In this document: positions 7,655 through 30,141 of the stretch, piece by piece
Position numbering within the stretch: position 1 is the stretch's first letter
Layout: each line of letters begins with the position of its first letter
Origin: an uncultured Coraliomargarita sp.
GTDB taxonomy: Bacteria > Verrucomicrobiota > Verrucomicrobiia > Opitutales > Coraliomargaritaceae
Direction of reading: 5' to 3'
Assembly (NCBI GenBank): GCA_964474105.1
Contig: CAYYSE010000002.1
Coordinates: forward strand, 2,032-66,031
Length of the DNA stretch: 64,000 nt
Translations under genes and position numbers: made by a program
Notes under the pieces: model-generated
What the model saw: only the letters and a program-made list of their open reading frames with translations
Told to the model about the DNA's origin: nothing
Database searches by the model: none

Positions 7655-7815
7655 TTTGTGAGCCAAAAACCGGGGCATTCCACCTAGCAAACGCTAAACT
7701 GTTCACTCGATGGGATATCCGCTGATGCTCGACTCGCATGAGTATGACTCGCGGGATATTCGAACTGATTCATTTTTATCTTTATTCTTTGGGATGCTCT
7801 GCTCCTATCAATCAC

Positions 7816-10400: not shown

Positions 10401-10498
10401 TGAATGCAAAGTAGGACCAATCATTCAGAAATCTGATATCGCACTCTAATTTAACAACCTGATAATAAATATAGGGTTGACTGCAAGGGTTTGCTGGT

Positions 10499-11614
10499 TT
10501 GTGTGGTTTTATGCAGCGAATTCTTTTACGTGGGATGCCGGCGACTTATCATGCGATGAGTCGGGTGGTGGGTGGTCAGCGTTTGTTGGGTGAGCGGGAG
10601 CAGGAGGTTTTCCGCAAGATGATCTGGCAGGTGGCGGATTTCTGTGGGGTGGAGATTTTGACCTACTGTGTGATGTCGAACCATTTTCATGTGCTGGTGC
10701 GGGTGCCGGAGCAGCAAGCAGTATCGGATGCGGAATTGCTGCGGCGCTTCAAGGTGCTGTATCCGAAGCCGACGAAGTATCAGACGGTGGAGTTTGCGCG
10801 GCTGGAAAAAGCGCTGGGTGAGGGTAATGCCGATGCGGCGGCGATCCGTGAGCGGCTGCTGGCCCGGATGCATGATCTGTCGGCTTTCATGAAGACCCTG
10901 AAACAACGCTTCTCGATCTGGTATAACCGCAACCATGACAACCGCCGGGGCACACTATGGATGGATCGCTTCAAGAGTGTGCTGGTGGAGGGCAAGGGCA
11001 ACCCGTTGCAAACGATGGCGGCTTATATTGACCTGAATCCGGTGCGGGCAGGCTTGGTGAAGGATCCGAAGGATTATCGTTTTTGTGGTTATGCCGAGGC
11101 GGTGGCGCAGTCCGCCTTTGGCAAGCGCTCCGCGCCGGTCGATGCCGCCTCAGACCAGGACCTGCGGTCTCATCGACTCGCTCCGGTAAGGGAGGCGCAG
11201 TCTAAAGCGGTAAAGCAGCGGGCACTTTGGGGCTTATGCCATATTTGGAGTGCTTATGCGCATGGGGAGAAGCGTGAAAATTTTTCTCCGGAGAGGGCAC
11301 TGCAGTCGCACCGGGAGTTAATTTTTGGTAAGTTTGCCGCTGAGGCGGGCCTTGCACCAAGCGACCGCGCGCGGGCACTAAGAGTGCTGGAGCAAGAGGA
11401 TGCGCGCTTGCCGCCAGCCACCGTGCTGCGTTGCCGGGTGCGTTATTTTACGGATGGGTTGATTCTCGGCTCAGAGGAATACGTGCGGTGCTGGGCGACC
11501 CGATGGCAGACGGCCCGCCAGTTGAAACATCCACCGAAGATTTGTGCCGCGCGGGGTGGGGATTGGGGCGATCTTGCGGTGGCATCCCGCCTGCGCCGGG
11601 CGGTGTTTGGATGA
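10499..11614 (+). CDS. REP-associated tyrosine (Y1/HUH) transposase, RAYT/TnpA-REP-like, long form
   Basis: YHAMSR, HUH motif YCVMSNHFHVLV, RGTLWMDRFKSVLVE, catalytic-Tyr region AYIDLNPVRAGLV and DYRFCGY. The start may instead be ATG 10511. Confidence 0.88.
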   Translation: MCGFMQRILLRGMPATYHAMSRVVGGQRLLGEREQEVFRKMIWQVADFCGVEILTYCVMSNHFHVLVRVPEQQAVSDAELLRRFKVLYPKPTKYQTVEFARLEKALGEGNADAAAIRERLLARMHDLSAFMKTLKQRFSIWYNRNHDNRRGTLWMDRFKSVLVEGKGNPLQTMAAYIDLNPVRAGLVKDPKDYRFCGYAEAVAQSAFGKRSAPVDAASDQDLRSHRLAPVREAQSKAVKQRALWGLCHIWSAYAHGEKRENFSPERALQSHRELIFGKFAAEAGLAPSDRARALRVLEQEDARLPPATVLRCRVRYFTDGLILGSEEYVRCWATRWQTARQLKHPPKICAARGGDWGDLAVASRLRRAVFG

Positions 11615-15708: not shown

Positions 15709-15778
15709 GGAGGGGGTGCAGGATGCTACTTTAGCGGCGGGTGTAAATGTCGAAAATAAAAAGCCCTGGCCGGCGGGT

Positions 15779-15969
15779 GCAATTTTAATTACCGGATAAG
15801 CTTTATTTCATGCGGGTAGCGCGATCGCGTCCCGCGGCGCATGTTGCGCTTTGGCCTGGTTGACGCCCGGGCAAGTCTGGCAGGGCACCGGGCACTGCGG
15901 GCCTTCCTGCGGTGCGGGGACGCACCTGCGCTACCCTCTTTCCGCAAGTTAATCCGCACTTAAAATGGT
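15779..15969. mobile_element. REP-doublet (REPIN/MITE-like) element, copy 1, with outer inverted arms
   Basis: Left arm GCAATTTTAATTACCGGATAAGCTTTATT (15779-15807). REP GGGTAGCGCGATCGCGTCCCGCGGCGCA (15814-15841). 15906-15935 is the exact 30-bp reverse complement of 29874-29903. The right arm contains CCGCACTTAAAAT (15954-15966). Confidence 0.8.
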
Positions 15970-16124
15970 AGCCCATTGGGCAAACAGCTTCCGCAGACTA
16001 CGGATTGACGCCGGGAGTGGAATTGGTTGAGGATAGCAGGATGGAACAGATTATAGAGCTGCGCTTTTGAACGGAATCGCGGAGACCTGACACATCAATT
16101 AAAAAACAAGACCTAATCCCAAGT

Positions 16125-17210
16125 ATGAAAAAAGTATTTATATCCGGTTGCTATGACATCCTGCACGGGGGGCATATTCAGTTCTTTAAGGAAGCCCGCG
16201 CGTTAGGGGATCATTTAACCGTCTGTTTTGCCTCGGACAAGGTGTTGTGGGAGCACAAGAAGCGCCGCACCTCGCTTCCGCAGGACCACAAGCTGGCGCT
16301 GATGACTGCGCTGGATATGGTGGACCAGGTGGTGATTGGCGACTGCGCTGAGTTGGGCCTGGATTTCAAAGATCATTTTCTGAAGATCCGCCCGGACATT
16401 CTGGCCGTGACCGAGGATGACCAGTATGAAGGGCAGAAACGTGACTTGTGCGCACAAGTGGGTGCTGAATACGTCAAGTTGCCCAAGACGCCCCCGCAAT
16501 TTACCCCGGTATCGACCACCTCTATCGTGCGCAACATCCGCACGCCCACTTTTGCTCCGCTGCGGGTGGACTTCGGCGGCGGCTGGCTGGATGTGCCCCG
16601 GTATGCGCGTGAGGGCGCCTACATTGTGAACTGTGCGATTTCCCCGCTGGTGTCGCTCTCAAATTGGAATTATGAGCAAAAGTCCGGATTGGGTGGCAGT
16701 GGTGCCTGGGCCTTGTTGAACGGCAACGACGGGATTGAGAGCGAACTCGCGCTGGGTGTCGGCTGGCAGGATCCGGCGATTATTCGCGAGACGGGCCTGT
16801 GCGTGTGGCGCAGCGGGGACAAGCCGGTGCTCCACTTCAAGCGCAACGGGGATTTTCTGCGCGGGCACATGGCGCTGCACTACACGGATATTCCGCATGA
16901 TACGCCGGGCAATGCGGATAACCTGCGCGACTACGATCTGGTGGAGCGCGCCGGGCGACTGGCAAAAGAAGCCGTGTTTGAAGCCTCATTGTCCAAACTC
17001 GGTGCGGCGGTGCAACTCAGCTATGAGATGCAACTCAAGGAGGGCATGTCCGCGCTGCCGGATGCGCCCGGCTGCATTGGACGCAAATACGCCGGCGGCG
17101 GCTGGGGTGGCTATGCGCTCTATCTGTTCGAGAACACGGAGGACCGGGATGCCTTTGTTTGCTCCGCGAGCAACAACCGGCCGATTGAGCCCTACATCAC
17201 GATTCGCTAG
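16125..17210 (+). CDS. Fusion of an HxGH cytidylyl/adenylyltransferase domain and an HddA-like GHMP sugar-kinase domain
   Basis: N-terminal GCYDILHGGHIQFFKEARALGDHL. C-terminal APLRVDFGGGWLD, SGLGGSGA and KYAGGGWGGY correspond to GHMP motifs I-III. Confidence 0.7.
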   Translation: MKKVFISGCYDILHGGHIQFFKEARALGDHLTVCFASDKVLWEHKKRRTSLPQDHKLALMTALDMVDQVVIGDCAELGLDFKDHFLKIRPDILAVTEDDQYEGQKRDLCAQVGAEYVKLPKTPPQFTPVSTTSIVRNIRTPTFAPLRVDFGGGWLDVPRYAREGAYIVNCAISPLVSLSNWNYEQKSGLGGSGAWALLNGNDGIESELALGVGWQDPAIIRETGLCVWRSGDKPVLHFKRNGDFLRGHMALHYTDIPHDTPGNADNLRDYDLVERAGRLAKEAVFEASLSKLGAAVQLSYEMQLKEGMSALPDAPGCIGRKYAGGGWGGYALYLFENTEDRDAFVCSASNNRPIEPYITIR

Positions 17211-17318
17211 CCGTCCGCTTTTATCCTTTACCGGGGCATGGATGCGCCCAATTTATAGTTAATGACGGGGGTGCCGCGCATCGGATCCCTGTCCTCCGAC
17301 TTCTGACTGCTGTTACAA

Positions 17319-18500
17319 ATGAGCCTGATCGAAACAATCCGCACCAATACCGAAACGATTATCGGCGAGGCCGAACTGGAAGACCGCATGCACGGCAACC
17401 GCCCGCTGCGCGTCAAACTCGGGGTCGATCCCACCCGCCCGGACCTCACCTTCGGGCATCTGGTGGTGTTTAACAAACTGCGCCAGTTTCAGGATCTCGG
17501 GCATGAAGCCATCCTGATCATCGGCGATTTCACGACGCTTATCGGCGATCCCTCCGGGCGCTCCAATACCCGTCCCGCCTTGACGAAAGAAGAGATCGTC
17601 GAGAATGCCGAAACCTACCTGGAGCAAGCCTTCATGGTGCTGGACGAACACAAGACCACCGTCCGCTACAATAGTGAATGGTTTAACCAGATGGGCTTCG
17701 AAGACTGCCTCAAGCTGGCGCGCAAGATGACGGTGGCCCGCATGCTGGAGCGCGATGATTTCGCCAAACGCTATGCCGGTAATGCGCCGATTTCGATCAT
17801 CGAATTTCTTTACCCATTGATCCAGGGCTACGACTCACTGGTCTTGAATGCCGATGTTGAGATCGGCGGCACCGACCAGCTCTTCAACATGCTGGTGGGC
17901 CGTGCCCTGCAAAAAGATGCCGGCAAGCTAGAGCAGGCGGTGATCACCATGCCGCTGCTGGTGGGTCTGGACGGAGTGAAAAAGATGTCGAAGAGCGCGG
18001 ACAACTACATCGCGTTCACCGACAACGCCAAGGAGATGTTTGGTAAAATCATGTCGATCAGCGACGAGACCATGTGGGACTATTACCGGCTGCTGTTGGA
18101 ATTCGACAAAAAGCCTATTGAAAAACTGCAGGCAGGCCACCCGATGGAGGCCAAGAAACATCTGGCCACCTCGCTGGTTGGGCAGTTCCACTCGATGGGC
18201 GAGGCCCGCTATGAACTGGAGCAATTCGAGCAGGTTTTTTCCCAGCACAAGCTGCCGGATGACATGCCGGTATTTACCTGGTATGATTTGTTGGGCGATG
18301 CCGCGAGTGCCCCGCTGTTTGAGATTATGGCCCAGACCGAGCTATTTGAAAGCAAGGGAGCCATCCGGCGGCTGGTGCAGCAGGGCGGGGTAAAAGTGGA
18401 CGGGGAAAAGCAGCTGGATCCCAACCGCGAAATGACTCCGCCCCAGGGCGACCAGATTTTCCAGGCCGGCAAGCGGATCTTTTTCAAGATTGCGGTTTAG
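17319..18500 (+). CDS. tyrS: Tyrosine--tRNA ligase
   Basis: KLGVDPTRPDLTFGH, IGDFT..IGDPSGR, YPLIQGYDS, GGTDQLFN, KMSKS and a C-terminal S4 domain. Confidence 0.96.
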   Translation: MSLIETIRTNTETIIGEAELEDRMHGNRPLRVKLGVDPTRPDLTFGHLVVFNKLRQFQDLGHEAILIIGDFTTLIGDPSGRSNTRPALTKEEIVENAETYLEQAFMVLDEHKTTVRYNSEWFNQMGFEDCLKLARKMTVARMLERDDFAKRYAGNAPISIIEFLYPLIQGYDSLVLNADVEIGGTDQLFNMLVGRALQKDAGKLEQAVITMPLLVGLDGVKKMSKSADNYIAFTDNAKEMFGKIMSISDETMWDYYRLLLEFDKKPIEKLQAGHPMEAKKHLATSLVGQFHSMGEARYELEQFEQVFSQHKLPDDMPVFTWYDLLGDAASAPLFEIMAQTELFESKGAIRRLVQQGGVKVDGEKQLDPNREMTPPQGDQIFQAGKRIFFKIAV

Positions 18501-18564
18501 TTTGAAGCGGGTATTGCGAAGCGTATTGCTTTTCATGGACCCCTGCTACAGATTTCGATTCCCC

Positions 18565-20481
18565 ATGACTTTCCCTATTTTTCATAAAGCACGCGCGGTG
18601 CCGTGTTTTATCGGCGCAGTGTTGCTCTCGCTGCTGTGGCTGCCGACCGGCTGCCGGACTCTGGGATCCTCCAGCGAATACCCGGTACTGTTTTCGCCCG
18701 ACTCCGGCTCGCTGGGGCCGCACGAAGAAGAACTGCAAGCGGTGCTGCGCCTCATCCCGCGCGGGGAGTGGGAACAGGCGCGGGAGCAGATGGCGGCACT
18801 CTATGCCAAGGCCCCGCAAGATGCCTCGGTGGACCGCGTGTATAATTGGCTGGAAGTGGAGTATGAAAAGCAGCGCCAATACGCCCTGGAGCGGCAGATC
18901 GCGAACGCCGCCCCCGAGTCAGAGCGTTTCAATCCGACCTTGCAGAGCGTGGCGACCGACCCGAAGCGCAAGGACCTGCCGATATCGAGCACCACGCGCA
19001 AGGCTTTTGAAGATGCGAAGAATCAGTTGCTGGTGCCCGATTCATTCAATCGGACGATTATGCGCAAGGGGCAGTTGATCGATCACAAATCCGTGCCGGG
19101 GCGGATGGAAAGCCTGCTGGAGAGGCGGGTATCGCTGCAGTTGGACAAGGTCAGCCTGGAGACAATTATCTTCACACTCGGCCAGCAGGAGGGGCTGAAT
19201 TTTGTGGCGGACCGTTCGCTGCCGGCTTTCCAGCAAACACTCAGCGTGAATATCGAAGACGCGCCACTGCGGGAATTTCTGGACTATGTGACGCGCAACA
19301 TGAACGTGCGCTTTCAGGTCGGTGACGAAATTATCTGGATCGTAGACGGCAAGAGCGGGGTGGCGCAGGCAGAGGAAACCCGTTTCTACCGGCTGCGCAA
19401 GGGCTTCATTATGCCGGCCCAGTTCGGAGCCAGCGAGGTGGAACGGGTAACGGAGAAGAAGAAGGACGTGGTGACCGAGAAGCAAACCGAGAAGGTGTCG
19501 CAATTTGTCAACGACTCGACTGCGCGGGAGCCCTCGATCGAATTGGCCATCAGCCGTTTTTTTGCGGGCTCGGATTTTATGATTGATTACGAGCGCAACG
19601 TCATCGTGGCGCGGGGCACCCGCGAGCAGCTGGCCACCTTGGAGCGCATCATCGAAGAGTTCGACCGTCCGGTCCAGCAGGTGTTGATCGAGGCCCGCTT
19701 TATCACGGTCACCCAGGCGGCGTTTTTACAGCTGGGGGCGACCTGGGAGACGGGCCGCCCGGCGGTTGATGATCGGGTGCCACTGGACTTTACCGGTTTT
19801 GGCAACGAAGTGGGGCTGGGCCTACAGGAGACTTTTACCAATGTATTTTCCCGCGAGAATCTTTCGGTTACCTTGAATGCGCTGGAACAAAGTGGCGAGA
19901 GCGAGACGCTGAGCGCACCGCGGCTAACGGTGCTGAACAACCGCCCGGCGTTGATTACCGACGGCAAGACGCAGTATTACTATGAGGAATATACCGTCTC
20001 GCAAACCATCCTGGAGCGCACATCGAGCTCGACGCTCGTGCCCAAGGGGAAACCGACTAAAATCGTGTCGGGAGTTTCGCTGGAGGTGCTGGCCAGTATC
20101 GGCGGCGATGGTGAGAGCATTATGCTGGCACTGGCGCCCAAAGTAACCAGCGAAGTGGAGCTGGTCACATTTGCCGAAGTGCGCGACCGCAATGAAAGTG
20201 GGGAGTTGGTCAGCTCCTTCGACATCCGCCTGCCGGAATCGCGCAACCAGGAACTGGCCACCCGGGCAGTGGTGAAATCCGGCGAGACCGTCGTGATGGG
20301 CGGGGTGATGGAGCGCAACCGCAGCACCTTTGTCGAGTCGGTGCCGCTGCTGGGCAATCTGCCGGTGATCGGCGCGGCCTTCCGCAACCGTACGGAAGTG
20401 GACCAGCCGCGCTACCTGCTGGTATTTGTCACGGCAACCCTGCTATCCGACACGGGAGAATTTATCCGCACCCAGAATTAG
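18565..20481 (+). CDS. Lipoprotein secretin (PilQ/GspD family)
   Basis: Lipobox LPTGC, N0-like domain, QQVLIEARFITV, APRLTVLNN..A and GETVVMGG.....VESVPLLGNLPVIGAAFR. Start is uncertain (18535 or 18565). Confidence 0.85.
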   Translation: MTFPIFHKARAVPCFIGAVLLSLLWLPTGCRTLGSSSEYPVLFSPDSGSLGPHEEELQAVLRLIPRGEWEQAREQMAALYAKAPQDASVDRVYNWLEVEYEKQRQYALERQIANAAPESERFNPTLQSVATDPKRKDLPISSTTRKAFEDAKNQLLVPDSFNRTIMRKGQLIDHKSVPGRMESLLERRVSLQLDKVSLETIIFTLGQQEGLNFVADRSLPAFQQTLSVNIEDAPLREFLDYVTRNMNVRFQVGDEIIWIVDGKSGVAQAEETRFYRLRKGFIMPAQFGASEVERVTEKKKDVVTEKQTEKVSQFVNDSTAREPSIELAISRFFAGSDFMIDYERNVIVARGTREQLATLERIIEEFDRPVQQVLIEARFITVTQAAFLQLGATWETGRPAVDDRVPLDFTGFGNEVGLGLQETFTNVFSRENLSVTLNALEQSGESETLSAPRLTVLNNRPALITDGKTQYYYEEYTVSQTILERTSSSTLVPKGKPTKIVSGVSLEVLASIGGDGESIMLALAPKVTSEVELVTFAEVRDRNESGELVSSFDIRLPESRNQELATRAVVKSGETVVMGGVMERNRSTFVESVPLLGNLPVIGAAFRNRTEVDQPRYLLVFVTATLLSDTGEFIRTQN

Positions 20482-20504
20482 ACATGCCAGCTTACCGGAA
20501 CTAA

Positions 20505-22256
20505 ATGGAGGATCGCCGGAGCGTTTGTGGATACATGCTAGCAACACAACAACAGACCTGGTCAGTCGTGGATCTCGGGGGACGCTGGATCAAGTGTGCC
20601 CGCTATGAGCTCCAGCACGGGACTGTGCGCGAGTCGGGCTCGCAGTTGATTGACATTCAGGCGGAAGGCCTGTTGTCCGGGGAGGAAATCGGCACGGCGA
20701 TTGGACGGGTACTGCGTCCGGATGTGGCGCATCCACTGGCGGTGGTCTTGCCCCAGAGCACGGCGGTGTCGCAGATCATGGATTTGCCCGGCCGTCCGGC
20801 GGGGGAACGGCTGGATAAATTTGAAGCGGACATCCTGGAGTTGATCGGTTTGCGCTCGGAGCGCTGCGTTTATGACAGCCACCCGCTCAAGCCTTTCGGC
20901 GGCTACGCGGGTCCGCAATGGATTAGCGTGGCCAAAGAAAAAGAGTTAAGCCGCCAGCTCGCGCCATTGCTCGGACAGGGCCTGCGCATTGAGGCAGTGA
21001 CCACGGTTGGCAACGCGCTGGTGGCGGCATTCACGCAGCTGCATCCCGGGGTGCAAGACGCTTATCTGGTGGATATCGGGGCGACGCAAACCACGCTGGT
21101 GCGGCTCCAGCGCGGCGAGCCGGTGCAGATGACCAGCCTGGCGGGTGGCGGCGAGCGCTGGACGGATGCGCTGGTGGAATCCAGCGGCGAGCCATTTGAA
21201 GATGTTGAAATGCGGCTTTTCGAGGACGATCCTTTCGCAGACCCGGACTATGGCAGGGTCTTGCAGGCGGAGGTGGGCCTCTGGCGCGAGCGGATCGAGC
21301 GGCAAGTTGAGGAATGGCGCGGCGAATTTGGCATGCCGGAGGACAGCAGCAGCGGCAGTCGGGAGATGCACCTGTTTGGCGGCTATGCGGCGCTGCGCGG
21401 GTTGCAGCAGACGCTGGCGGCTGGCGGCGGAGCCACCTGGATATTGCCGCAACCGGACGACGCAGCAGCTGCACCGGTATGGACTCCCGGTTACGGCGCG
21501 GTGTTGATGGCGGCGGGTATCAGCGGGCTGCAGGGTTCGATTCTGCCGCAGGCACTGGCAAAGATGCGACAGCGGCGCTTGAATCTGGAGCGCTTGAAAA
21601 CCGGAGTGCTTTCGGTGTTCGTGGTGCTCGCGGTGGTGCTAACGGCCGCAAGCATACAGCAGCAGCGCCGGGTGAATAGCGTGGCTGCCGCGACGCGCCA
21701 GGCGCAAACGACGCTAGTGGAAGTCAGGGCTGCGGTCGAATTGCTGGAGCAGCGGGATCAATTGGCGGCCCGGATCGAGCCGATTGTGCTGGGGCGGCTG
21801 AAGTCGCTGAATAGCCTGGAAACCTTTCGGAGGATCCAGCTGGTGCAGCAGGAACTCGACTTCAGTCTAATCCGATTTGTGGATCGGGAGACTTATTTTC
21901 AAGGGCTGGTGGCGGCCTCCGACTGGCCCGCAAGTGCTAAATTCAGCAAGTCAGCGGCAACCGACCGGGCAGCCGCCGCGCAGGATCCACAGGCAGCTGC
22001 ACCGCCCCAGGCATTTGTCGTCGAGTTGTCGGTGCCTGGGGAGCAGGCAGAGCAACTTCAAGTGTTGGGCGATATTGCCGGGCGCTTGCGGGAGGACGAC
22101 TATTTCGCAAACGTTGATCGGCTGGTGGGTGGGCGTGAGTCGGCGCTGTCGGCGAAGGGGTTGCCGCAGACAGACGAGGCCTATGCGCTGCTGTTGACCT
22201 TGGCTGATGCCGTTGCACCTGCGCCGCGTCCGGCCCGGAAAGGAGCCGGACGGTGA
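20505..22256 (+). CDS. PilM-PilN fusion / GspL-like assembly platform protein
   Basis: Actin-like motifs VVDLGG and LVDIGATQT, followed by one TM helix (GVLSVFVVLAVVLTAA) and a coiled periplasmic part. Alternative start ATG 20535. Confidence 0.6.
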   Translation: MEDRRSVCGYMLATQQQTWSVVDLGGRWIKCARYELQHGTVRESGSQLIDIQAEGLLSGEEIGTAIGRVLRPDVAHPLAVVLPQSTAVSQIMDLPGRPAGERLDKFEADILELIGLRSERCVYDSHPLKPFGGYAGPQWISVAKEKELSRQLAPLLGQGLRIEAVTTVGNALVAAFTQLHPGVQDAYLVDIGATQTTLVRLQRGEPVQMTSLAGGGERWTDALVESSGEPFEDVEMRLFEDDPFADPDYGRVLQAEVGLWRERIERQVEEWRGEFGMPEDSSSGSREMHLFGGYAALRGLQQTLAAGGGATWILPQPDDAAAAPVWTPGYGAVLMAAGISGLQGSILPQALAKMRQRRLNLERLKTGVLSVFVVLAVVLTAASIQQQRRVNSVAAATRQAQTTLVEVRAAVELLEQRDQLAARIEPIVLGRLKSLNSLETFRRIQLVQQELDFSLIRFVDRETYFQGLVAASDWPASAKFSKSAATDRAAAAQDPQAAAPPQAFVVELSVPGEQAEQLQVLGDIAGRLREDDYFANVDRLVGGRESALSAKGLPQTDEAYALLLTLADAVAPAPRPARKGAGR

Positions 22257-23080
22257 GGCCGGGTAACGGCTTGGCTGCGGCAGCAGGCCGCCCGGGTGGC
22301 TACGCCCGCTGGTTCAGGACTGCCATGATGCTGGTGCTGGGCATCTATAGCCTGAGCATCTATCTTTTGTTCTTTCGACCGGCGACCCGTGGAATGACCG
22401 AGCTGGAAAGCGATCTACTGGATGCCCACCAGCAAATTGCAGCCACCGGTTTCGGATACTCCGAAAACCCCGGCGAGGCGCTCAAATATGTGCGCTCAAA
22501 GCTCGAACGGGTGCGCCAGCTGGCCGGGCGACTTTCCGCGCAGATCACCTTCCACCCGGAGATGGATTATCTGCTCAGCTCGCCTTTTCGGGTATTGGAG
22601 TTTGAGCAGCGGCGCTTCGATATTCAGCAAAGTTTAACCCAGCTGGCGCGCGCACACGGGGCAAGTTTACCGGCGGATTTGTTTGCCGGCTTACCGGCTT
22701 ATGATGCAGCCACAGATCGGCCGGAGCTGCTGTGGCTGCACCTGGAGTTTTTCAACCACGTGATGACAGCACTGCTGTCGAGTGGACAGAATTTGCAAGT
22801 CGAGCAAATCGAGGCACTGCCGTTGCGACTCCTCGGCGCGACATCTGTATCGGAAGGCACTCTCTTCCAGCTGCAGCTCCACCTGAAGGTGCAGGGCTCA
22901 GCTGCTGCGCTGGCGGTGTTTCTCAACGCTTCTCTGCCCGGTGCGGAGCAAACGGAGAACTCGTTGGGTGAAAAAGCTTACAGCATTGATCGACTAGACC
23001 TTCAGCGCGCCGACGATCCGGAGCAGGTGATACTCGACACCCGGCTGACCGGATTCATAGTTAGCGACCAAGTTTTCTGA
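22253..23080 (+). CDS. PilO/GspM-like inner-membrane protein
   Basis: GTGA overlap with the upstream gene; N-terminal TM, coiled coil, C-terminal ferredoxin-like alpha/beta segment; position in the cluster. Confidence 0.5.
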   Translation: MRPGNGLAAAAGRPGGYARWFRTAMMLVLGIYSLSIYLLFFRPATRGMTELESDLLDAHQQIAATGFGYSENPGEALKYVRSKLERVRQLAGRLSAQITFHPEMDYLLSSPFRVLEFEQRRFDIQQSLTQLARAHGASLPADLFAGLPAYDAATDRPELLWLHLEFFNHVMTALLSSGQNLQVEQIEALPLRLLGATSVSEGTLFQLQLHLKVQGSAAALAVFLNASLPGAEQTENSLGEKAYSIDRLDLQRADDPEQVILDTRLTGFIVSDQVF

Positions 23081-23637
23081 TGGAAATGCCCGCGCGAGTG
23101 ACTGTGTTGAACTTACTGGCAATCTGCTTTGCCGGCGGCTTGCTGGTTGTGGTGCTGGTTGATTTAGTCCGTCCGCAGGAGGCGGATGCCGAGCCCGCGT
23201 CCGAAGACGTTCCCAAGTTGCAGGGCAACTGGTTTTCGCCGCGCAGCTTCGCCTTGTTGGGCAGAGGGCAGTCGCGTCTTGCCGGGATTGATGTGGAACA
23301 GAATCCCTTTGTGGACCCGGTGGCCGTGGCCAAAGCGATGGAGCCGGCGGCAGCACCGGTCGTCGCAGCCAAGCCCGAGCCGGTGGCACCCCCGCCGCCC
23401 GTGACGCGCAAAATTTCGCTGGTCTATCGGGGCTTCTACCGGTCCAGCAGCGGCGCAGCTTTTGTTTACATCGAAGTGGACAATGTCACCGGGCTGTATC
23501 CGGTCGGCACGGAGTTGGTAGCGAACTGGACGATCGCCGCAGTCCAGGGCAATGAGTTGATTCTGGAACAGGATGCCGCGCCGCGCCGCGCCTTTCCCTT
23601 CAACCAGAAAAAAAGTCTCGAAGTGCCGCTGAAATAG
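23080..23637 (+). CDS. PilP/GspC-like protein
   Basis: TGATG overlap; N-terminal TM, Pro/Ala linker, then a small beta domain (LVYRGFYRSSSG...WTIAAVQGNELIL). Confidence 0.45.
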   Translation: MEMPARVTVLNLLAICFAGGLLVVVLVDLVRPQEADAEPASEDVPKLQGNWFSPRSFALLGRGQSRLAGIDVEQNPFVDPVAVAKAMEPAAAPVVAAKPEPVAPPPPVTRKISLVYRGFYRSSSGAAFVYIEVDNVTGLYPVGTELVANWTIAAVQGNELILEQDAAPRRAFPFNQKKSLEVPLK

Positions 23638-23655
23638 CCGCCATAGTAACCGGGA

Positions 23656-25443
23656 ATGCCGCACGCCCCGCAAAAAAAATCACATGATATTGGCAGTGCC
23701 CTGTTGGCTCAGGGAGTGCTGAGTGCGCGTCAACTGGAGCTGGCGCGGCGCCGGGCCAACCGCCAGAGTCTGCCTTTACACCGCGCCATTATCGAGTTGA
23801 ACCTGGCATCCGAGCAGGAAACCTATCGTGCGCTGGCACCCTTGCACGGGCTGGCCTACCGGGAAATTGAGGGCCTGCCGGTGCCGCCGCAGGTGCGCGA
23901 GCGCGTGCCGGTTAAGATCGTGCTGCGTTACACGGTCTTTCCGGTCGAGGAGCAGGAGGGCTTATTGACGCTGGCATTTGCAGATCCGCCGACTGCGGCG
24001 ATGCTCTCGAATCTACGGCTGGCGCTGGGGCAGCGGCTGCGGGCGGTGCTGGCAACGCCAAGCGAGATCCGGGCCGGGATCGAGCGCTTTTACGGTCTGG
24101 GGGCGGAGACGATCCAGCAGCTGCGCGAAGACCGGGGGCTGCCCGCATCGGAGGAAGCCCTGACCTTTGAGCACAGCCAGGATCAGGAAGAACCTCAGCC
24201 GGGCGGGGATGATGCCTCGATTTCCAAATTCGTGACCCAAATCCTGCACGAGGCGCTGCGCCTCGGTGCGACCGACATCCACATGGAGCCGTATGAAGAC
24301 CGGATACGGCTGCGCTACCGCATCGACGGAATCCTGCAGGACATCCCGGTGCCGTCCGGTTTGCAGGAGCTCTACGGCGCGATCGTTTCGCGGCTCAAGG
24401 TGATGGCCGGCTTGAATATCGCCGAGCGCCGGCTGCCCCACGATGGCCGGATTGCGATGAAGCGGGGCAGTCGCCGCTATGATTTGCGGGTATCGATCCT
24501 GCCCACCCGCCTGGGTGAATCCGTCTGCCTGCGCGTCCTCAGTCGCGACGACCTGAGCCTCGAATTTGAGCGGCTGGGTATGCCGCCCGGAGAGCAGGAG
24601 TCGATCCAGGCAGTAATGGGGCTCAGCCAGGGGATGATGTTGCTGACCGGACCGACCGGTAGCGGCAAAACGACCACGCTCTACACCGCGCTGCAACATT
24701 CACGCGATGAGGGGCGCAAAATCATTACCGTGGAGGACCCGGTGGAGTATCAGATGGGTGGAGTCTCGCAGATGCAGGTGCGCCCGGATATCGGGCTGAC
24801 TTTTTCCTCCGGGCTGCGCTCGATTCTCCGGCATGATCCGGACGTGGTGTTGATCGGCGAAATCCGCGACCAGGAGACGGCGGAAATTGCGATTCGCGCC
24901 GCGCAGACCGGGCACCTGGTGCTTTCGACCCTGCACACCAATGATAGCCCGAGTGCAGTGATCCGCTTGATTGATATGGGGATCGAGCCCTTTCTCGTCG
25001 CGTCCTCGCTGATCTGCAGTATCGCCCAGCGGCTGGTGCGGCTGAACTGCCGCAACTGCGCACGCGAGGAGACGCTGGAGGATCCGGTGCTGCGGGCAGA
25101 AATGGCGGCCGCACTCAAACTGCAGCCAGCGGAAGTGCGATCAATGCGTGGTGCGGGCTGTGTCGAATGCGGCGGGCGCGGTTACCGCGGGCGGGAGGCG
25201 ATCTACGAGTTTTTCTATTTAAGCGACCGGATGACTGACCTGATTCAGCCCGGATTGACCTTGGCCAAGCTGCGGGAAATGGCCCGTTCCGAGGGCTGGC
25301 GGCCGCTGCGCGAGGTGGGCTGGGAAAAAGTCGCGGCAGGCATCACCTCGGTCGAGGAGCACCAGCGGGTGACCCGGCGGGCGGAGCATCTCGTGCGGCA
25401 TGGCGCGGCACAGTCCGATATTTCGCAAGTTAAACTCGTCTAA
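23656..25443 (+). CDS. PilB/GspE-family assembly ATPase
   Basis: MshEN-like N-terminus, ATDIHMEP, ERRLPHDG, Walker A GPTGSGKTT, TVEDPVEY, DPDVVLIGEIRD, TGHLVLSTLHTN and Zn knuckle CRNC...CVEC. Confidence 0.9.
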   Translation: MPHAPQKKSHDIGSALLAQGVLSARQLELARRRANRQSLPLHRAIIELNLASEQETYRALAPLHGLAYREIEGLPVPPQVRERVPVKIVLRYTVFPVEEQEGLLTLAFADPPTAAMLSNLRLALGQRLRAVLATPSEIRAGIERFYGLGAETIQQLREDRGLPASEEALTFEHSQDQEEPQPGGDDASISKFVTQILHEALRLGATDIHMEPYEDRIRLRYRIDGILQDIPVPSGLQELYGAIVSRLKVMAGLNIAERRLPHDGRIAMKRGSRRYDLRVSILPTRLGESVCLRVLSRDDLSLEFERLGMPPGEQESIQAVMGLSQGMMLLTGPTGSGKTTTLYTALQHSRDEGRKIITVEDPVEYQMGGVSQMQVRPDIGLTFSSGLRSILRHDPDVVLIGEIRDQETAEIAIRAAQTGHLVLSTLHTNDSPSAVIRLIDMGIEPFLVASSLICSIAQRLVRLNCRNCAREETLEDPVLRAEMAAALKLQPAEVRSMRGAGCVECGGRGYRGREAIYEFFYLSDRMTDLIQPGLTLAKLREMARSEGWRPLREVGWEKVAAGITSVEEHQRVTRRAEHLVRHGAAQSDISQVKLV

Positions 25444-25482
25444 TTCATTGACATTCAAAATCATTGGACCAACAAAAAGGGC

Positions 25483-26505
25483 GTGTTCGGCTTTCTCTCT
25501 AATGATATCGGTATCGACCTGGGAACCGCAAATACGCTCGTATTTGCGAAGGAAAAGGGTATCGTCCTGCGCGAGCCCAGTGTGGTCGCGATCTATACTT
25601 CGACCAAAAAGGTCTGCGCGGTGGGCTCGGATGCGAAGAAGATGCTGGGCCGCACGCCCGGTAACATCACCGCCATCCGCCCGATGAAGGACGGCGTTAT
25701 CGCCGATTTCGAGATCACCGAGGCGATGCTGCGCTACTTTATCAACAAGGTGAACCGCAAGAAGACCTTCGTAGCGCCGCGTATTGTGGTGGCGGTTCCC
25801 TCCGGGATCACCGAGGTGGAGCGCCGCGCGGTTAAGGATTCTGCGATCCGGGCTGGTGCCCGCGACGTGGTCCTGCTGGAAGAGCCGATGGCGGCGGCCA
25901 TCGGGGTGGGCCTGCCGATTGATGAACCGGCTGCCAACATGATTGTGGACATCGGTGGCGGCACCACCGAGGTGGCGATCATTTCCCTGGCGGGTGTGGT
26001 TTATACCAAAAGTATCCGGGTGGGTGGCGATGAGATCGACAGTTCGATCGTCAATTACATGAAACGGGCCTATAATTTAATGATCGGGGAACGCACCGCC
26101 GAGGAGATCAAGATCCGGATTGGCTCCGCCTTTCCGCTGGAAGAGGAAATCTCGATGGAGGTGCGCGGCCGAGACTCTGTCGCCGGGCTGCCCAAGACGA
26201 TTACCATTACCTCGCAGGAGATCCGCGAAGCGCTGTCGGATACGATTCAAGCGATTGGCGATCTGGTGCGCAACGCGCTGGAGCGCTGCCCGCCCGAGCT
26301 GTCTGCCGACCTGGTGGACCGGGGATTTTTCCTGGCCGGTGGTGGTGCGATGATCAAGGGCCTCGACCAAATGCTGAGCGATACAACCGGGCTGCCGGTC
26401 ATCATTGCCGACGATCCGCTCAGCGCGGTGGCGAACGGCACCGGCATGGTGCTCCACGAACTGGCCTTTTTGCTCAAGGACCTGACCGGGGCTCCTAAAA
26501 ACTAA
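25483..26505 (+). CDS. mreB: Rod shape-determining protein MreB
   Basis: DIGIDLGTANTL, RPMKDGVIADF, VDIGGGTTEVA and LAGGGA. Confidence 0.97.
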   Translation: MFGFLSNDIGIDLGTANTLVFAKEKGIVLREPSVVAIYTSTKKVCAVGSDAKKMLGRTPGNITAIRPMKDGVIADFEITEAMLRYFINKVNRKKTFVAPRIVVAVPSGITEVERRAVKDSAIRAGARDVVLLEEPMAAAIGVGLPIDEPAANMIVDIGGGTTEVAIISLAGVVYTKSIRVGGDEIDSSIVNYMKRAYNLMIGERTAEEIKIRIGSAFPLEEEISMEVRGRDSVAGLPKTITITSQEIREALSDTIQAIGDLVRNALERCPPELSADLVDRGFFLAGGGAMIKGLDQMLSDTTGLPVIIADDPLSAVANGTGMVLHELAFLLKDLTGAPKN

Positions 26506-26514
26506 TTCTGCGAC

Positions 26515-27366
26515 GTGGCGAAACTACGCCTCGATAAGTATAAGCCGTTAGTCGCCCTGGGCGTCTTTCTCCTGGCGTGGTGGATTGTGCCGGTCGGGGT
26601 GAAGGTTTTTTTAAAAGCCGGGTTCACCGAGTTTCAGGCACCGGCCTGGGTGGCCAATTCCTATCTGGAGGATCTGGAAGGCTTCTGGGGGCGGCGGATG
26701 CACTCCAAGCGCGAGCTGGAAATCGCCGGTCAGGAAATTGCCCGCGCAAAGTCCTATTATCAGTTTAACGCACAGCGGGCGGAAACACTGCAGGCGGAAA
26801 TCAGCCGCCTGGAGTCTTTGTTGGATCTCCCCAGCCGCCGGGAATACCGCTACGAAGTGGCGCGGGTGATCCGCCGTGATGTGAACGCCTGGTGGCAACA
26901 CCTTATTTTGCGCAAGGGCCGCGACCACGCGATCCCCGCAGGCGCGGCGGTGGTCTTCGCCGGTGGTGTGGTGGGGCGGGTGGTCGAAGTCAATGCCTTC
27001 ACCAGCCGGGTGGAGTTGATTACGAGTCCGAATTTCCGCATGGCGGCACAGTTTGAGGGGGATCCGCGGCCGGTGGTTTACCAGGGGCTGCCGCAGTCCG
27101 GCTTTGGTGACCCGGTGGGGCGGGTGAGCGATGCGCCGCAGGATTTGGTGGTCACTACCCAGGAGCCGCTCCGGCTGGTATCGACCCATCTGGGCGGAAC
27201 CTTTCCCCCCGGCCTGGCGATCGGTCAGGTGACCTGGCTGGAGCCGGGCGTGACGGGGATCTTTCAAACCGGTCAGGTCTTGCTGGACCCGGATTTGCTG
27301 AGTCTGCACGAAGTGGCCGTCCTGATCCCGTTGAACCCGCTTGAGGTGGAGAGTCATGCTCCTTGA
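26515..27366 (+). CDS. mreC: Rod shape-determining protein MreC
   Basis: N-terminal TM, coiled coil, LILRKGRDHAI...GVVGRVV, and FPPGLAIGQV; directly follows mreB. Confidence 0.88.
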   Translation: MAKLRLDKYKPLVALGVFLLAWWIVPVGVKVFLKAGFTEFQAPAWVANSYLEDLEGFWGRRMHSKRELEIAGQEIARAKSYYQFNAQRAETLQAEISRLESLLDLPSRREYRYEVARVIRRDVNAWWQHLILRKGRDHAIPAGAAVVFAGGVVGRVVEVNAFTSRVELITSPNFRMAAQFEGDPRPVVYQGLPQSGFGDPVGRVSDAPQDLVVTTQEPLRLVSTHLGGTFPPGLAIGQVTWLEPGVTGIFQTGQVLLDPDLLSLHEVAVLIPLNPLEVESHAP

Positions 27367-27886
27367 TCCGCGTGCAATTGTCCTGTTCGGTGCGAACGTG
27401 CTCCTGATTTACCTGAGTCAACTGGTGAACTCGGCTCTCTCGGCGTGGCCGGTTTATTTCTTGTTGCTGGGGCCGCTGGTGGTCCTGCCGGCGCTCTACC
27501 TGCGGCATCAATCCTATTTTATCTGCACCCTGTTGACCGGGCTGTGGCTGGATGCCGTGCTGCGCGCACCGTTCGGATTTTTTACCGGCTTACTGCTGCT
27601 GGCGGGCGCCGCCATTTTTTTCCTGCGGAGCCGCTTTCGTCCGGAGCACAACTATCATCCCCTGCTGCTGGGGCATCTGGTCAACTTGTGGCTGATCGTG
27701 GCACTGACGCTGGCGCTGGGGCGTCCGCATTTTGGCGTAGCAAGTTTTTGGATACAGGTGCTGACGACCCTGTGCGCCTCCCATCTGGCACTGCTGGTGG
27801 TGGCGCCCTGGTTTTACCAGCTGGAGCGGCTGCTTTTTGAGATTTGCCAGCTGGAAACAGAGCCGGAGGATCTGCCCTTGTTATGA
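27356..27886 (+). CDS. mreD: MreD-like membrane protein
   Basis: About 176 aa with ~5 TMs and a GLWLD....PFG motif; sits between mreC and mrdA and overlaps both. Confidence 0.65.
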
Positions 27887-29835
27887 GCCAGTTCGATGTG
27901 CACCGGGGCGATAACCCGCGCATTCTGTTTTTGTTCTGGATCATCATAGCGGCGGGGCTGGTGCTGCTGGCGGGGCTGGGCTGGCGCCAATTGGTCGCCA
28001 GTAGAAAGTATGAGGAGATCGAGAAGCGGCAGACCGAGCGACGCATCCTGATGCCCGGTCCGCGTGGGAATATCTATGACCGCAAGGGCAACCTGCTGGT
28101 GGGCAACCGCGCCCATTATTCTGCGGTAGTGTATCTGGATGATTTACGGGCGGAGTTCCGGCAGGAGTATTCTGCGATCATTCGGGCGGAGCGGGCCCGG
28201 CTGTGGGAGAGCTATGAGGCAACGCCGCCAGCACAGCAGCTGGATCAGCCGCCACTGCCCGACTACCACCAGTTGCAGTGGGTCGCCCGGCAGAATGTGA
28301 TCCAGCGCTACATTGATGAAATCAACCGCATCACCGGGCGTGATGATCGCGTATCCTCCAGCAGGATTATCCGGCACTTCAATGAACAGCTGTTGCTCCC
28401 GCTGCCGCTGGTTGAGGATCTGAGTCCGGATCAGTATGCCCGCCTGGTGGAGCAGGTGCCAGTGGATTCGCCGATAAAAGTCCATACCGGGACGGCCCGT
28501 TATTATCCTTACGCATCCGCCGCCGCACACGCGCTGGGCTACGTGCAGAGCGTCAACCCCGATCCGGCGGAGTTTCCCGATGACGGAATCAAGACCTTCA
28601 CCTTTAAAAAACAGATCGGCAAAACCGGCCTGGAGCGGAGTTTTAACGAGCTGCTCTCCGGAAGTGCCGGGACCGAGATGTGGCGGGTGGATCCGCTCGG
28701 GTTTCAGGACACACGGCTCGACATGGTGGCCCCGCAGCAGGGAGGCGATCTCATCACCAGCCTCGATATCGACCTGCAGCGCGTGGCAGAAACCGCGCTG
28801 GGCGAGCGAAAAGGAGCGGCGATTGCAATTGATGTGCAGACCGGGGAGCTGTTGGCTCTGGCCAGTCATCCGACTTACGACCTGAACGAACTCAGCCCGT
28901 TTATCCCGCGCACAACCTTTGACGCCATCAACGAACAGGGTGCCTGGTTGGACCGCACCGTGCAGCTCTCCTATCCGCCGGGCTCGACCTTTAAGTTGCT
29001 CACTACAATCGCCGGGATGCGGGCCGGCACCATCGGGCCGGAGACGCGCCACAACTGCCGCGGGGTTTACCGGGTCGGCAACCGGATTTTCCGCTGTCAT
29101 GCCCGTTATGGTCACGGCGAAGTCGATACTGTGGCCGCGATCGAAGGCAGCTGCAACGTGTATTACTATACCGAAGGACTGCGCATGGGTATCGACGTGC
29201 TGAGTGCCGAGGCCAAGCGTTTCGGACTAAACGAAAAGACGGGCATCGAGCTGCCCTTTGAAACCAGTCGCATCGTGGTGCCCGGCAAGGCCTGGAAACG
29301 TGAACAGATCGGTGTGGGCTGGGTGCCGGGAGATACCGCCAACACCGCCATTGGACAGGGTTTTCTGTTGGTGACCCCGTTGCAGATGGCGACTTTTATG
29401 GCCTCGCTGGCACGCGGCGAGACCCGCACCCGCCCCACCTTGCGCGCGCTGTCGGCAGAAGAAGCCGGGGCGGTGGATCATGGCGGTGAAGCGATCGGCT
29501 TGGATGCAGATGAATGGCGTATGATCTGGACCGGAATGGAACGGGTCGTGGGGCCCGATGGCACCGGGCGGCTGGTGCAGATCGAGGGCCTGCGCATCGC
29601 TGGAAAAACCGGCACTGCGGACTTCCGGGCGCATGGTCAGGAGGTCAATCTCGCCTGGTTTATCGGGTGCGCCCCGATTGACAATCCGCAGATTGCGGTT
29701 GCCGTGATGATTGAAGGTGCGAGCGCCACCGACAGCTTTCACGGTGGCTCCACGGCCGGACCGGTGGCCAAAGACATCTTCCTGGAATTTATCCGGCAAT
29801 ACCCCGAACGGGCGGGATTCCCCGCCGGGCAATAA
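27883..29835 (+). CDS. mrdA: Penicillin-binding protein 2 (class B transpeptidase)
   Basis: ATGA overlap with mreD; [21 protein letters not shown]; catalytic motifs PGSTFK, GSCN and GKTGT. Confidence 0.93.
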
Positions 29836-29837
29836 AA

Positions 29838-30026
29838 GCAATTTTAAGTGTGGGCTAATCTTTATTACATTCAGGTAGCGCAGGTGCGTCCCCGCACCGC
29901 AGGAGCGTTCGTAGAGCCAAGCCTCCAAGACCAGACCCCAACACTTCCAGAACACCACAGCCGCAAGGTGCGCCGCGGGACGCGGCCGCGCTACCCGAAT
30001 AAAGCTTAGCCCGCACTTAAAATTGC
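29838..30026. mobile_element. REP-doublet (REPIN/MITE-like) element, copy 2, with 29-bp inverted arms
   Basis: GCAATTTTAAGTGTGGGCTAATCTTTATT (29838-29866) and AATAAAGCTTAGCCCGCACTTAAAATTGC (29998-30026) are inverted repeats at 27/29 identity. Inside are two inverted GTAG-footed hairpins at 29874-29903 and 29969-29996. Confidence 0.85.
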
Positions 30027-30141
30027 ATGGCACCGGGCGGTAAACGCACTATCCATTTGACGGCATTGCAGTCCTTGCCAGCATTTACGGGATTCGCGCC
30101 GCTATTGCGGCTATTTCCCCCACGGTCATAATCATCGCACT

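Follow-up and report, generated by a model that had tools for sequence, protein, structure and literature searches.

The window, the 64,000-nt stretch of uncultured Coraliomargarita sp. DNA analysed here, carries two copies of a multi-copy, non-autonomous miniature-transposon family in which one known kind of small mobile DNA sits inside another. Sequence comparison demonstrates that the REP doublet of this family travels inside a shell whose inverted repeats, 9-bp target-site duplication and empty site are those of an ordinary transposon. We favour, with a probability of roughly 0.6, the reading that the entire element is a MITE-like mobile unit moved in trans, with the REP doublet as a nested second layer.

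As originally predicted, the copies lie in opposite orientation and share one nested plan: arm, GTAG-footed hairpin, spacer of about 64 nt, inverted hairpin, arm. Family homology extends both elements 4-5 nt further outward at each end, to 198-200 bp. Their parts are as follows.

15775..15974, minus strand (REP1 placed left): copy 1, entire element, subfamily B (family HMM, E = 2e-55)
15775..15796, plus strand: copy 1 terminal inverted repeat on the REP2 side, GGGTGCAATTTTAATTACCGGA, canonical GGGTGCAATT tip kept intact
15815..15842, plus strand: copy 1 REP2, foot GGTAGCGC followed by GATCGCG-TCC-CGCGGC
15843..15905, no strand: copy 1 spacer, 63 nt, subfamily-B type, aligning with the spacers of L011, L092, L094 and L115
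15906..15935, minus strand: copy 1 REP1, GGTAGCGCAGGTGCGTCCCCGCACCGCAGG, stem GGTGCG/CGCACC (repeat I1)
15952..15974, minus strand: copy 1 terminal inverted repeat on the REP1 side, with an eroded tip, ...CACTTAAAATGGTAGCCC instead of ...AATTGCACCC
29834..30031, plus strand: copy 2, entire element, subfamily A (family HMM match 29836-30030, E = 9e-59)
29838..29866, plus strand: copy 2 left arm, GCAATTTTAAGTGTGGGCTAATCTTTATT (repeat I3)
29874..29903, plus strand: copy 2 REP1, depth about 700-800x unique in two metagenome runs
29904..29967, no strand: copy 2 spacer, 64 nt, identical to the subfamily-A consensus
29968..29995, minus strand: copy 2 REP2, foot GGTAGCGC followed by GGCCGCG-TCC-CGCGGC
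29998..30031, minus strand: copy 2 right arm and terminal inverted repeat, AATAAAGCTTAGCCCGCACTTAAAATTGCATGGC, with a CCATG-variant tip

The REP1 units of the two copies are identical over 30 nt and the arms of copy 2 pair with each other at 27/29 positions (repeat I3), both exactly as proposed. The similarity claimed for REP2 (26/28) and for the left arm of copy 1 (25/29) also holds, with slightly different figures: 2-3 of 28 positions differ between the REP2 units, and the copy 1 left arm pairs with the copy 2 right arm at 26/30 (repeat I4). Since the arm consensus is expected to have 0 matches at up to 3 mismatches and the family HMM finds just two match sites in the window, copies 1 and 2 themselves, chance can be excluded for both. 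Each element folds into one long hairpin (z = −7.6 and −3.3), and the seven further GGTAGCGC octamers in the window all fall within coding sequence and lack a hairpin. Rfam and tRNA scans of the window gave no matches, a terminator scan of both element sites found none, and scanning the same sites for promoters gave a single weak candidate, within the copy 1 left arm.

Copy 1 lies between two divergently transcribed genes, one MiaB-like and one for a cytidylyltransferase, and is 85% identical to L115, a subfamily-B member bearing a 9-bp duplication. Copy 2 begins, counting from GCAATT, 2 nt past the native PBP2 stop codon (TAA 29833-29835), 110 nt upstream of lnt; from REP1 through the right linker it matches the subfamily-A consensus at about 98% identity. 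Its left arm has AAAA in place of the outer GGGT of the canonical tip, the inner part being of right-arm type. The CCATG tip variant of its right arm recurs in L017, L090 and L101, there with duplications.

The proposal of a multi-copy family was borne out in public aquifer and spring metagenomes, in which REP1 is present in hundreds of copies and the arms in tens. REP1 reached a depth of about 4800 compared to 5.7 for unique sequence in run X1, and about 21300 compared to 31 in run X2; REP2 and the arms stood at about 25-130 times the unique depth in the metagenome runs, and an 89-nt unitig over 29879-29967 at about 10 times in run X2. Scanning these metagenomes yielded at least 119 stretches. 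A check of arm-REP co-occurrence, put forward with the original prediction, found both arms in about 30 of 43 complete non-redundant doublets (by eye) and none in 4-5; because the loci were picked by an exact match to a REP1 25-mer, both this association and the conservation of REP1 are measurements from the REP side only. Against a collection of representative genomes, among which the window's species is apparently absent, the same 25-mer gave a single match, an Opitutaceae MAG with a naked doublet. The copies that bear duplications come from co-occurring relatives and not demonstrably from the window's genome, and the depth ratio of L070 is unlike that of the window.

Two subfamilies, A and B, were recognised, within each of which spacers and linkers are conserved, and the composite of arms and REPs evidently moves as a single unit. 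Spacers of nearly the length first given (63 and 64 nt, against 64-65 bp) were confirmed, but not their free divergence: the two window spacers look heavily diverged because copy 1 belongs to B and copy 2 to A, and the apparent focusing of conservation on hairpins and arms is an artefact of comparing two subfamilies. The two layers, arms and REPs, are nevertheless distinguishable, as had been suspected.

The family ends in terminal inverted repeats with a 22-nt consensus, 5'-GGGTGYAATTWWAAGTGCGGGG, which was found at both ends, by a score threshold, in 22 of the 43 elements; the elements are non-coding and 144-320 bp in size. Direct repeats directly abut the GGGTG...CACCC termini: perfect 9-bp target-site duplications (9/9) flank 10 of the 22 two-armed elements and 8/9 repeats a further 3, 13/22 being compatible with 9 bp at the canonical tips, compared to 0 of 2856 mismatched control pairings that reach 9/9. 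The same duplication-bearing set was recovered by a termini-only scan, and the duplicated 9-mers have no motif in common. The outermost 5 nt occur in two forms, GGGTG and CCATG, and duplications are found with both; two such forms are unusual for DDE ends. Flanking repeats of the window copies themselves reach only 5/9 and 7/9 (null probability about 0.07 for 7/9), so the original observation that they lack a convincing duplication stands for these copies, but the HUH chemistry deduced from it does not agree with the family as a whole. A recurrent flank, ATGGCGCCATCCAAGCTCGTTGAG..., was considered as a part of the element and rejected, as it is a conserved region upstream of a PEP-CTERM protein gene in related contigs.

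An orthologous pair of sites was also found. At L063 a 144-bp element has CGAACATCT on either side, whereas the empty site L050 contains a single CGAAAATTT and neither arms nor REPs, a comparison which shows that the arms arrived together with the insert and which speaks against an HUH mechanism. Taken together, the terminal inverted repeats, the 9-bp duplications and an empty site free of arms and REPs point to MITE behaviour and not to HUH. An IS200/IS605-type element would be expected to have no inverted-repeat ends, to leave no duplication and to insert 3' of a fixed tetra- or pentanucleotide, and a REPIN to stop at its REPs, with no shell or duplication; neither pattern was found here, the duplications lying outside the arms.

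We thus propose that the mobile unit consists of the 22-nt terminal inverted repeats, short linkers and a head-to-head heterodimer core of GTAG-footed REP hairpins. A transposase acting in trans would recognise the inverted repeats, cut at the 5'-G...C-3' tips and join these to a 9-bp staggered target cut, the repair of which would create the duplication; by precedent, this enzyme would be of the DDE / RNase-H-fold class. The composite probably originated by nesting: most likely, a REP doublet inserted, on more than one occasion, at the palindrome in the middle of a small MITE, and would since have been carried with the shell, the REP1 unit being amplified in tandem after insertion.

The original prediction had named an ordinary MITE with a parent IS as the case that would tell against it; the duplications belonging to that case are present, and the parent was not found. 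No transposase gene was found between these inverted repeats in the window, in about 1.2 Mb of fetched loci, in viral contigs or in plasmids. The inverted-repeat pattern had no match in viral contigs and the canonical element none in plasmids by BLAST, a search for long elements with the termini and a 9-bp duplication recovered only elements of 144-318 bp, and no IS candidate emerged among multi-copy 500-4000 bp segments of the loci. Two DDE IS beside a Y1 homologue in L142 and L143 were rejected as parents, their inverted repeats, CCTAAAAAGATGAGTTAA and GATTCTGCTGAAAAAC, being unrelated. As a lead only, the family inverted repeat resembles the IS1-family end GGTGGTGTTTCAAAAAGTATGCTG quoted in PMC6382973.

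With a constant foot, GGTAGCGC, and covarying stems (GGTGCG/CGCACC, GCCGCG/CGCGGC, GGCGTG/CACGCC and others, around a TCC(N) loop), the hairpins are by these features genuine GTAG-footed REPs, as first described. REP1 also forms tandem arrays that repeat every 32, 38 or 44-46 nt; arrays in L083 repeat about every 111 nt. The same arms enclose no fewer than three unrelated doublet interiors (A/B, a short 85-nt type and the L077 type); the last, at L077 6835-7040, is an unrelated REP class with a 9-bp duplication present. These interiors, together with naked doublets sharing REP1 in other genomes (L001, L005, L076 and L086), agree with an account in which the arms were palindromes already in place, serving as landing pads for RAYT-driven REP doublets that insert repeatedly at their centres; Di Nocera et al. 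(2013, PMC3733652) read the arrangements in Anabaena variabilis and in Halothiobacillus neapolitanus in this way. We consider this account unlikely: the empty site has no arms, the duplications are outside them, the arm-REP linkers are conserved inside subfamilies, and the termini-only scan, among loci chosen via the REP1 25-mer, found no arm pair without a REP. A bolder version of the nested-MITE reading is equally doubtful, even counting its radical form: REP doublets of several unrelated classes might regularly target the palindrome at the middle of a single MITE shell and thereafter spread by its cut-and-paste machinery, and in the radical form the Opitutales Y1 family may itself recognise the arms and make the 9-bp duplications. 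If the former were true, REPs of this lineage would spread with no RAYT, or on top of what a RAYT does; the latter would imply a new HUH transposition chemistry.

An improbable alternative is an extended REPIN, in which hairpins and AT-rich arms are together recognised by a RAYT-type Y1 HUH transposase that would mobilise or sustain the element by a single-stranded DNA route, the enzyme being a paralogue or the product of the following gene, which the original prediction credited with mobilising or maintaining the elements.

10499..11614, plus strand: Y1 HUH protein gene, RAYT-like (Pfam Y1_Tnp 53.5 bits, cut-off 23)

The gene sits 4.2 kb from the elements and its translation, 359 aa as called by public assemblies, has intact HFH (HUH) and AAYIDLNP (catalytic Tyr) motifs. 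The family is very large in Opitutales, with at least 7924 clustered homologues in public data, some labelled RayT by JGI; three more homologues are found inside REP-centred loci, Y1 genes associated with inverted repeats (TIRYTs) have been described (Di Nocera et al. 2013, PMC3733652), and the GTAG REPs with their covarying stems are real. Against this, the protein scores 65.2 bits with the NCBIfam RAYT model NF047646, below the cut-off of 80, its best solved relative being ISDra2 TnpA (E = 0.06). In the window and in L047, L080 and L084, the 260 nt to either side of the Y1 gene are free of REPs; inverted repeats do not flank it either, and the contigs of Y1 homologues L141-L146 contain neither REPs nor arms. 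The element is also absent from 91 kb of relatives' DNA, including contigs with Y1 homologues 73-74% identical. Moreover, known Y1 chemistry accounts neither for the clean empty site nor for 9-bp duplications beyond the arms, IS200/IS605-type enzymes leaving no such duplications (PMC2817692). We found no link between this gene and the elements. Spread with no fixed stagger, such as target-primed or repair-associated insertion with 9-bp repeats as merely the commonest class, is very improbable: flanking repeats measure 15-19 bp in three elements whose tips are eroded, the termini come in two variants and group II intron reverse transcriptases occur on the same contigs, but 13/22 elements fit 9 bp at canonical tips and the inverted repeats are symmetrical, with no poly-A-like or one-sided truncation pattern.

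On the nested-MITE reading, the window copies are old, fixed insertions with eroded ends and presumably no longer mobile. Both were present in all of about 20 assemblies of the window's own population. Copy 2 is absent from the mrdA-lnt junction of relatives: in Coraliomargarita sinensis the two genes overlap, and a relative with an 80% identical Lnt has an unrelated 239-nt spacer between them; the PBP2 C-terminus is of equal length in all three organisms. For genome annotation the value is modest, one copy lying in a divergent promoter region and the other directly past the PBP2 stop.

To our knowledge, the movement of a REP or REPIN has never been directly shown in vivo, RAYT-driven transposition having been deduced from association and in vitro cleavage. 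Shell-borne doublets, with a second REP class in the same shell, offer a concrete alternative route for REP dispersal. Our full-text literature search with arm and REP strings matched unrelated primers only, and the closest comparisons are as follows. Like REPINs and their RAYTs (Bertels & Rainey 2011, PMC3116915; Nunvar et al. 2010, PMC2817692), the family has inverted pairs of GTAG-footed hairpins with about 64 nt between them, a copy number in the hundreds, exclusively intergenic positions, long-hairpin folding, and covarying stems over a constant foot; unlike them, it has its doublet inside a shell of 22-nt terminal inverted repeats with a 9-bp target duplication, and the neighbouring Y1 gene is not REP-flanked. 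With MITEs moved in trans by a DDE IS, such as MITEAba12 with its 9-bp duplications (PMC6382973), it shares a size of 144-320 bp with no coding capacity, inverted-repeat ends, a fixed 9-bp duplication kept by part of the copies and an empty site, and differs from them in its REP heterodimer core and tandem REP amplification, its two terminal 5-nt variants and a parent IS that was not found. Enterobacterial BIMEs (PMC2817692) also reiterate REP units in tandem with short linkers, but alternate REP orientation and have no inverted-repeat shell. TIRtrons/TIRYTs (Di Nocera et al. 2013) likewise combine a Y1 gene family with an inverted-repeat element family, except that their inverted repeats by definition flank the Y1 gene. 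Finally, GTAG-15 dimers within long palindromes in Anabaena variabilis and CGTC-1 dimers within 41-bp palindromes in Halothiobacillus neapolitanus (Di Nocera et al. 2013, PMC3733652) resemble the present family in that REP dimers are regularly arm-wrapped and arm pairs without REPs were not found. Those belong to another phylum and have other sequences, and their arms were read as insertion targets, with duplications and empty sites unreported, whereas here the arms come with the insert; the shell model also suggests a testable interpretation of the "REP dimers inside long palindromes" described in 2013 for cyanobacteria and Halothiobacillus.

The two copies in the window lie where the original prediction placed them, in opposite orientation, and follow its nested plan: arm, REP1 hairpin, spacer of about 64 nt, inverted REP2 hairpin and arm, the arms being terminal inverted repeats.

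15775-15974: copy 1, subfamily B
29834-30031: copy 2, subfamily A, between the PBP2 gene (mrdA) and lnt

The two copies agree at all 30 nt of REP1 and disagree at 2-3 of the 28 positions of REP2. The arms of copy 2 pair with each other at 27 of 29 positions, and its right arm pairs with the left arm of copy 1 at 26 of 30. Chance occurrence of the arm consensus is not expected, and each copy is predicted to fold into a single long hairpin. Across the 64 kb of the window a family HMM hit just these two elements (E = 2e-55 and 9e-59), and the seven further GGTAGCGC octamers of the window all lie within coding sequence without a hairpin. Tandem repeats of other kinds occur at 4360-4486 (at least 10 9-nt GGAGGCGGC units within ORF 29-7654, which codes for 2541 aa with Ig-like, CARDB and He_PIG domains) and at 61752-61900 (12-nt AAAAAAGCGACG-type units at the 3′ end of ORF 60444-61919, whose product has an N-terminal short-chain dehydrogenase domain and a Lys/Ala-rich tail).

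Beyond these two copies the family is large, the REP1 25-mer matching at least 119 stretches of the JGI metagenomes. Species-representative genomes gave one match, a doublet without arms in an Opitutaceae MAG; viral contigs and plasmids gave no match to the elements. The uncultured window organism is recorded in aquifer, cold-spring and hot-spring metagenomes, and its Lnt and Y1 proteins are nearest to those of Opitutales, where the named relatives include Coraliomargarita and Lentimonas. When contigs of three metagenome runs were placed on copy 2, the depth of REP1 was ~4800 compared to 5.7 for unique sequence in one run and ~21300 compared to 31 in another, and the depths of REP2 and of the right arm were ~25-130 times unique, figures that give no copy number for any one genome because metagenomes mix related populations (the depth ratio of locus L070 differs from that of the window). 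Divergent, arm-like sequences (TTTTAAGTGCGGGGTAA...) stand immediately ahead of REP1.

Among the matches listed, both arms were present in ~30 of 43 non-redundant complete doublets and 4-5 had no arms (loci L001, L005, L076, L086); since loci were picked by exact REP1 match, this association is seen only with the REP as starting point, and some of the REP1 conservation results from the selection itself. The family consensus reads GGGTGCAATTAAAAGTGCGGGG-linker-(REP1)n-spacer-REP2(inverted)-linker-CCCCGCACTTTTAATTGCACCC, and its inverted repeat is represented by GGGTGYAATTWWAAGTGCGGGG. Alignment of 20 simple elements separated two subfamilies that differ in spacer, REP2 stem and linkers, all of which are conserved within a subfamily; the family further includes A/B hybrids and a subfamily of short, 144-bp elements. 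Copy 2 carries the consensus spacer of subfamily A and is ~98% identical from REP1 to the right linker to duplication-bearing members, whereas copy 1 belongs to subfamily B (85% identity with the element of L115). The apparent divergence of the spacers, once read as conservation focused on hairpins and arms, thus comes from comparing different subfamilies.

Perfect 9-bp direct repeats flush with the GGGTG...CACCC tips flanked 10 of the 22 elements among the matches listed that had both arms recognised, and 3 more matched at 8/9. Control pairs, in which left and right flanks came from different elements, gave 9/9 in none of 2856 cases, and a scan by the 10-nt tips alone returned the identical set. 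The duplicated 9-mers share no common motif. Odd cases are the two tip variants and three elements whose flanking repeats measure 15-19 bp. At the filled site L063, a 144-bp element has CGAACATCT at both sides; the orthologous empty site L050 has one CGAAAATTT and neither arms nor REPs. As the duplications lie outside the tips and the empty site lacks arms, the arms arrive with the insert and are not a pre-existing target.

The lack of target duplication, which had been taken to fit HUH chemistry, holds for the window copies, with flank direct repeats of only 5/9 and 7/9, but not for the family. Both copies have eroded tips and look like old insertions no longer able to move; some 20 independent assemblies of the window's own population keep both, with constant intergenic lengths. 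The PBP2 and lnt genes of Coraliomargarita sinensis share 4 nt by overlap, and those of a closer relative (Lnt 80% identical) have 239 unrelated bases between them. Because of these junctions and the equal length of the PBP2 C-terminus in all three organisms, we infer that copy 2 is a lineage-specific insertion right behind the native PBP2 stop codon. Elsewhere in the window, tyrS and mreB are set apart by a ~7-kb block (18490-25443) with a secretin gene (PilQ/GspD-like) and four more ORFs; in C. sinensis (L148) mreB directly follows tyrS.

The REP layer is genuine and partly independent of the surrounding shell. Neither the foot, GGTAGCGC, nor the loop, TCC(N), varies across loci, and compensatory changes give several versions of the 6-bp stem. 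Tandem REP1 arrays of 2-5 units (periods of 32, 38 or 44-46 nt) were found in ~40% of the elements among the matches listed. At one site, two assemblies (L053 and L084) differ by exactly one 38-nt unit, a difference that could reflect short-read assembly collapse. A second, unrelated REP class (GTAGCGGCGTGCTTCAGCCGCC; GTAG, 5-bp stem, loop TGCTTCAGC) occurred once within family arms (L077 6835-7040, with a perfect 9-bp duplication), and forms BIME-like arrays without arms, of ~111-nt period, in one locus:

L083 1-2900: second-class REP array
L083 8652-9730: second-class REP array

The tip-based scan of loci returned no arm pair that lacked a REP core.

Other sequences adjoin or interrupt the elements. 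Recurrent junctions carry group II intron sequence (Rfam group-II-D1D4-6, 116 bits) and the short repeated motif (A/T)TTAAAGGACACCCA, and some of these insertions break up REP/arm elements; the motif also stands ahead of a distant Y1 homologue (33% identity) in L046 and L091.

L041 7535-7763, minus strand: group II intron/motif junction
L014 ~2442: the same
L072: the same
L091 ~1230-1330: the same
L046 8850-8925: the same

A PEP-CTERM protein gene is preceded by a conserved sequence of ~55 nt, ATGGCGCCATCCAAGCTCGTTGAGTTGGGATGTCGCTGGAACGAAACATAAACC, which in several related contigs directly adjoins an element arm.

L028 14-835: ATGGCGCCATCCAAGCTCGTTGAGTTGGGATGTCGCTGGAACGAAACATAAACC site
L009, L030, L041, L075, L091, L107: further ATGGCGCCATCCAAGCTCGTTGAGTTGGGATGTCGCTGGAACGAAACATAAACC sites

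L038 (4064-4250) and L041 (7899-8027) share the left flank and the element and differ in their right flanks, a pattern suggesting that copies of the element at separate loci have recombined.

The best reading of the elements is a MITE, a miniature inverted-repeat transposon, with a nested REP doublet as its core. An enzyme supplied in trans would recognise the inverted repeats, make 9-bp staggered cuts and move the MITE. That it is an ordinary MITE of a DDE IS agrees with the 9-bp duplications of the family, but a matching IS was not found: the window holds no DDE transposase, and scans of the loci found no autonomous element between these tips (longest bounded segment, 318 bp). Mobilisation by the RAYT-like protein of ORF 10499-11614 is not supported, as this Y1 gene and its homologues lack flanking REPs and arms (no REPs, arms or other inverted repeats beside Y1 in the window, L047, L080, L084 or L141-L146) and its product falls under the cut-off of the NCBIfam RAYT model. 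The protein has HUH (HFH) and Tyr (YIDLNP) motifs, scores above the Pfam Y1_Tnp threshold, resembles solved TnpA structures faintly and belongs to a family that is very large in Opitutales. The family HMM gave no hit across 91 kb of relatives' contigs, which include three with 73-74% identical Y1 genes. Just upstream of Y1, two long candidate ORFs overlap on opposite strands (8736-10400, plus; 9324-10424, minus), neither matched in Pfam or NCBIfam. Just upstream of a Y1 homologue, L142 carries two DDE IS, IS1182/IS5-like and IS4-like by Pfam (5823-7970 and 8155-9907), present in some assemblies and missing from another (compared with L144); with inverted repeats that bear no relation to the arms, they were rejected as parents of the elements.

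MITEs with 9-bp duplications driven by DDE IS are known (PMC6382973). A REP doublet in a duplication-making shell is undescribed in a 2024 MITE review (PMC10969869) and in the REPIN literature searched. REP dimers in long palindromes have been reported (PMC3733652); there the palindromes were interpreted as targets, whereas here the arms come with the insert.
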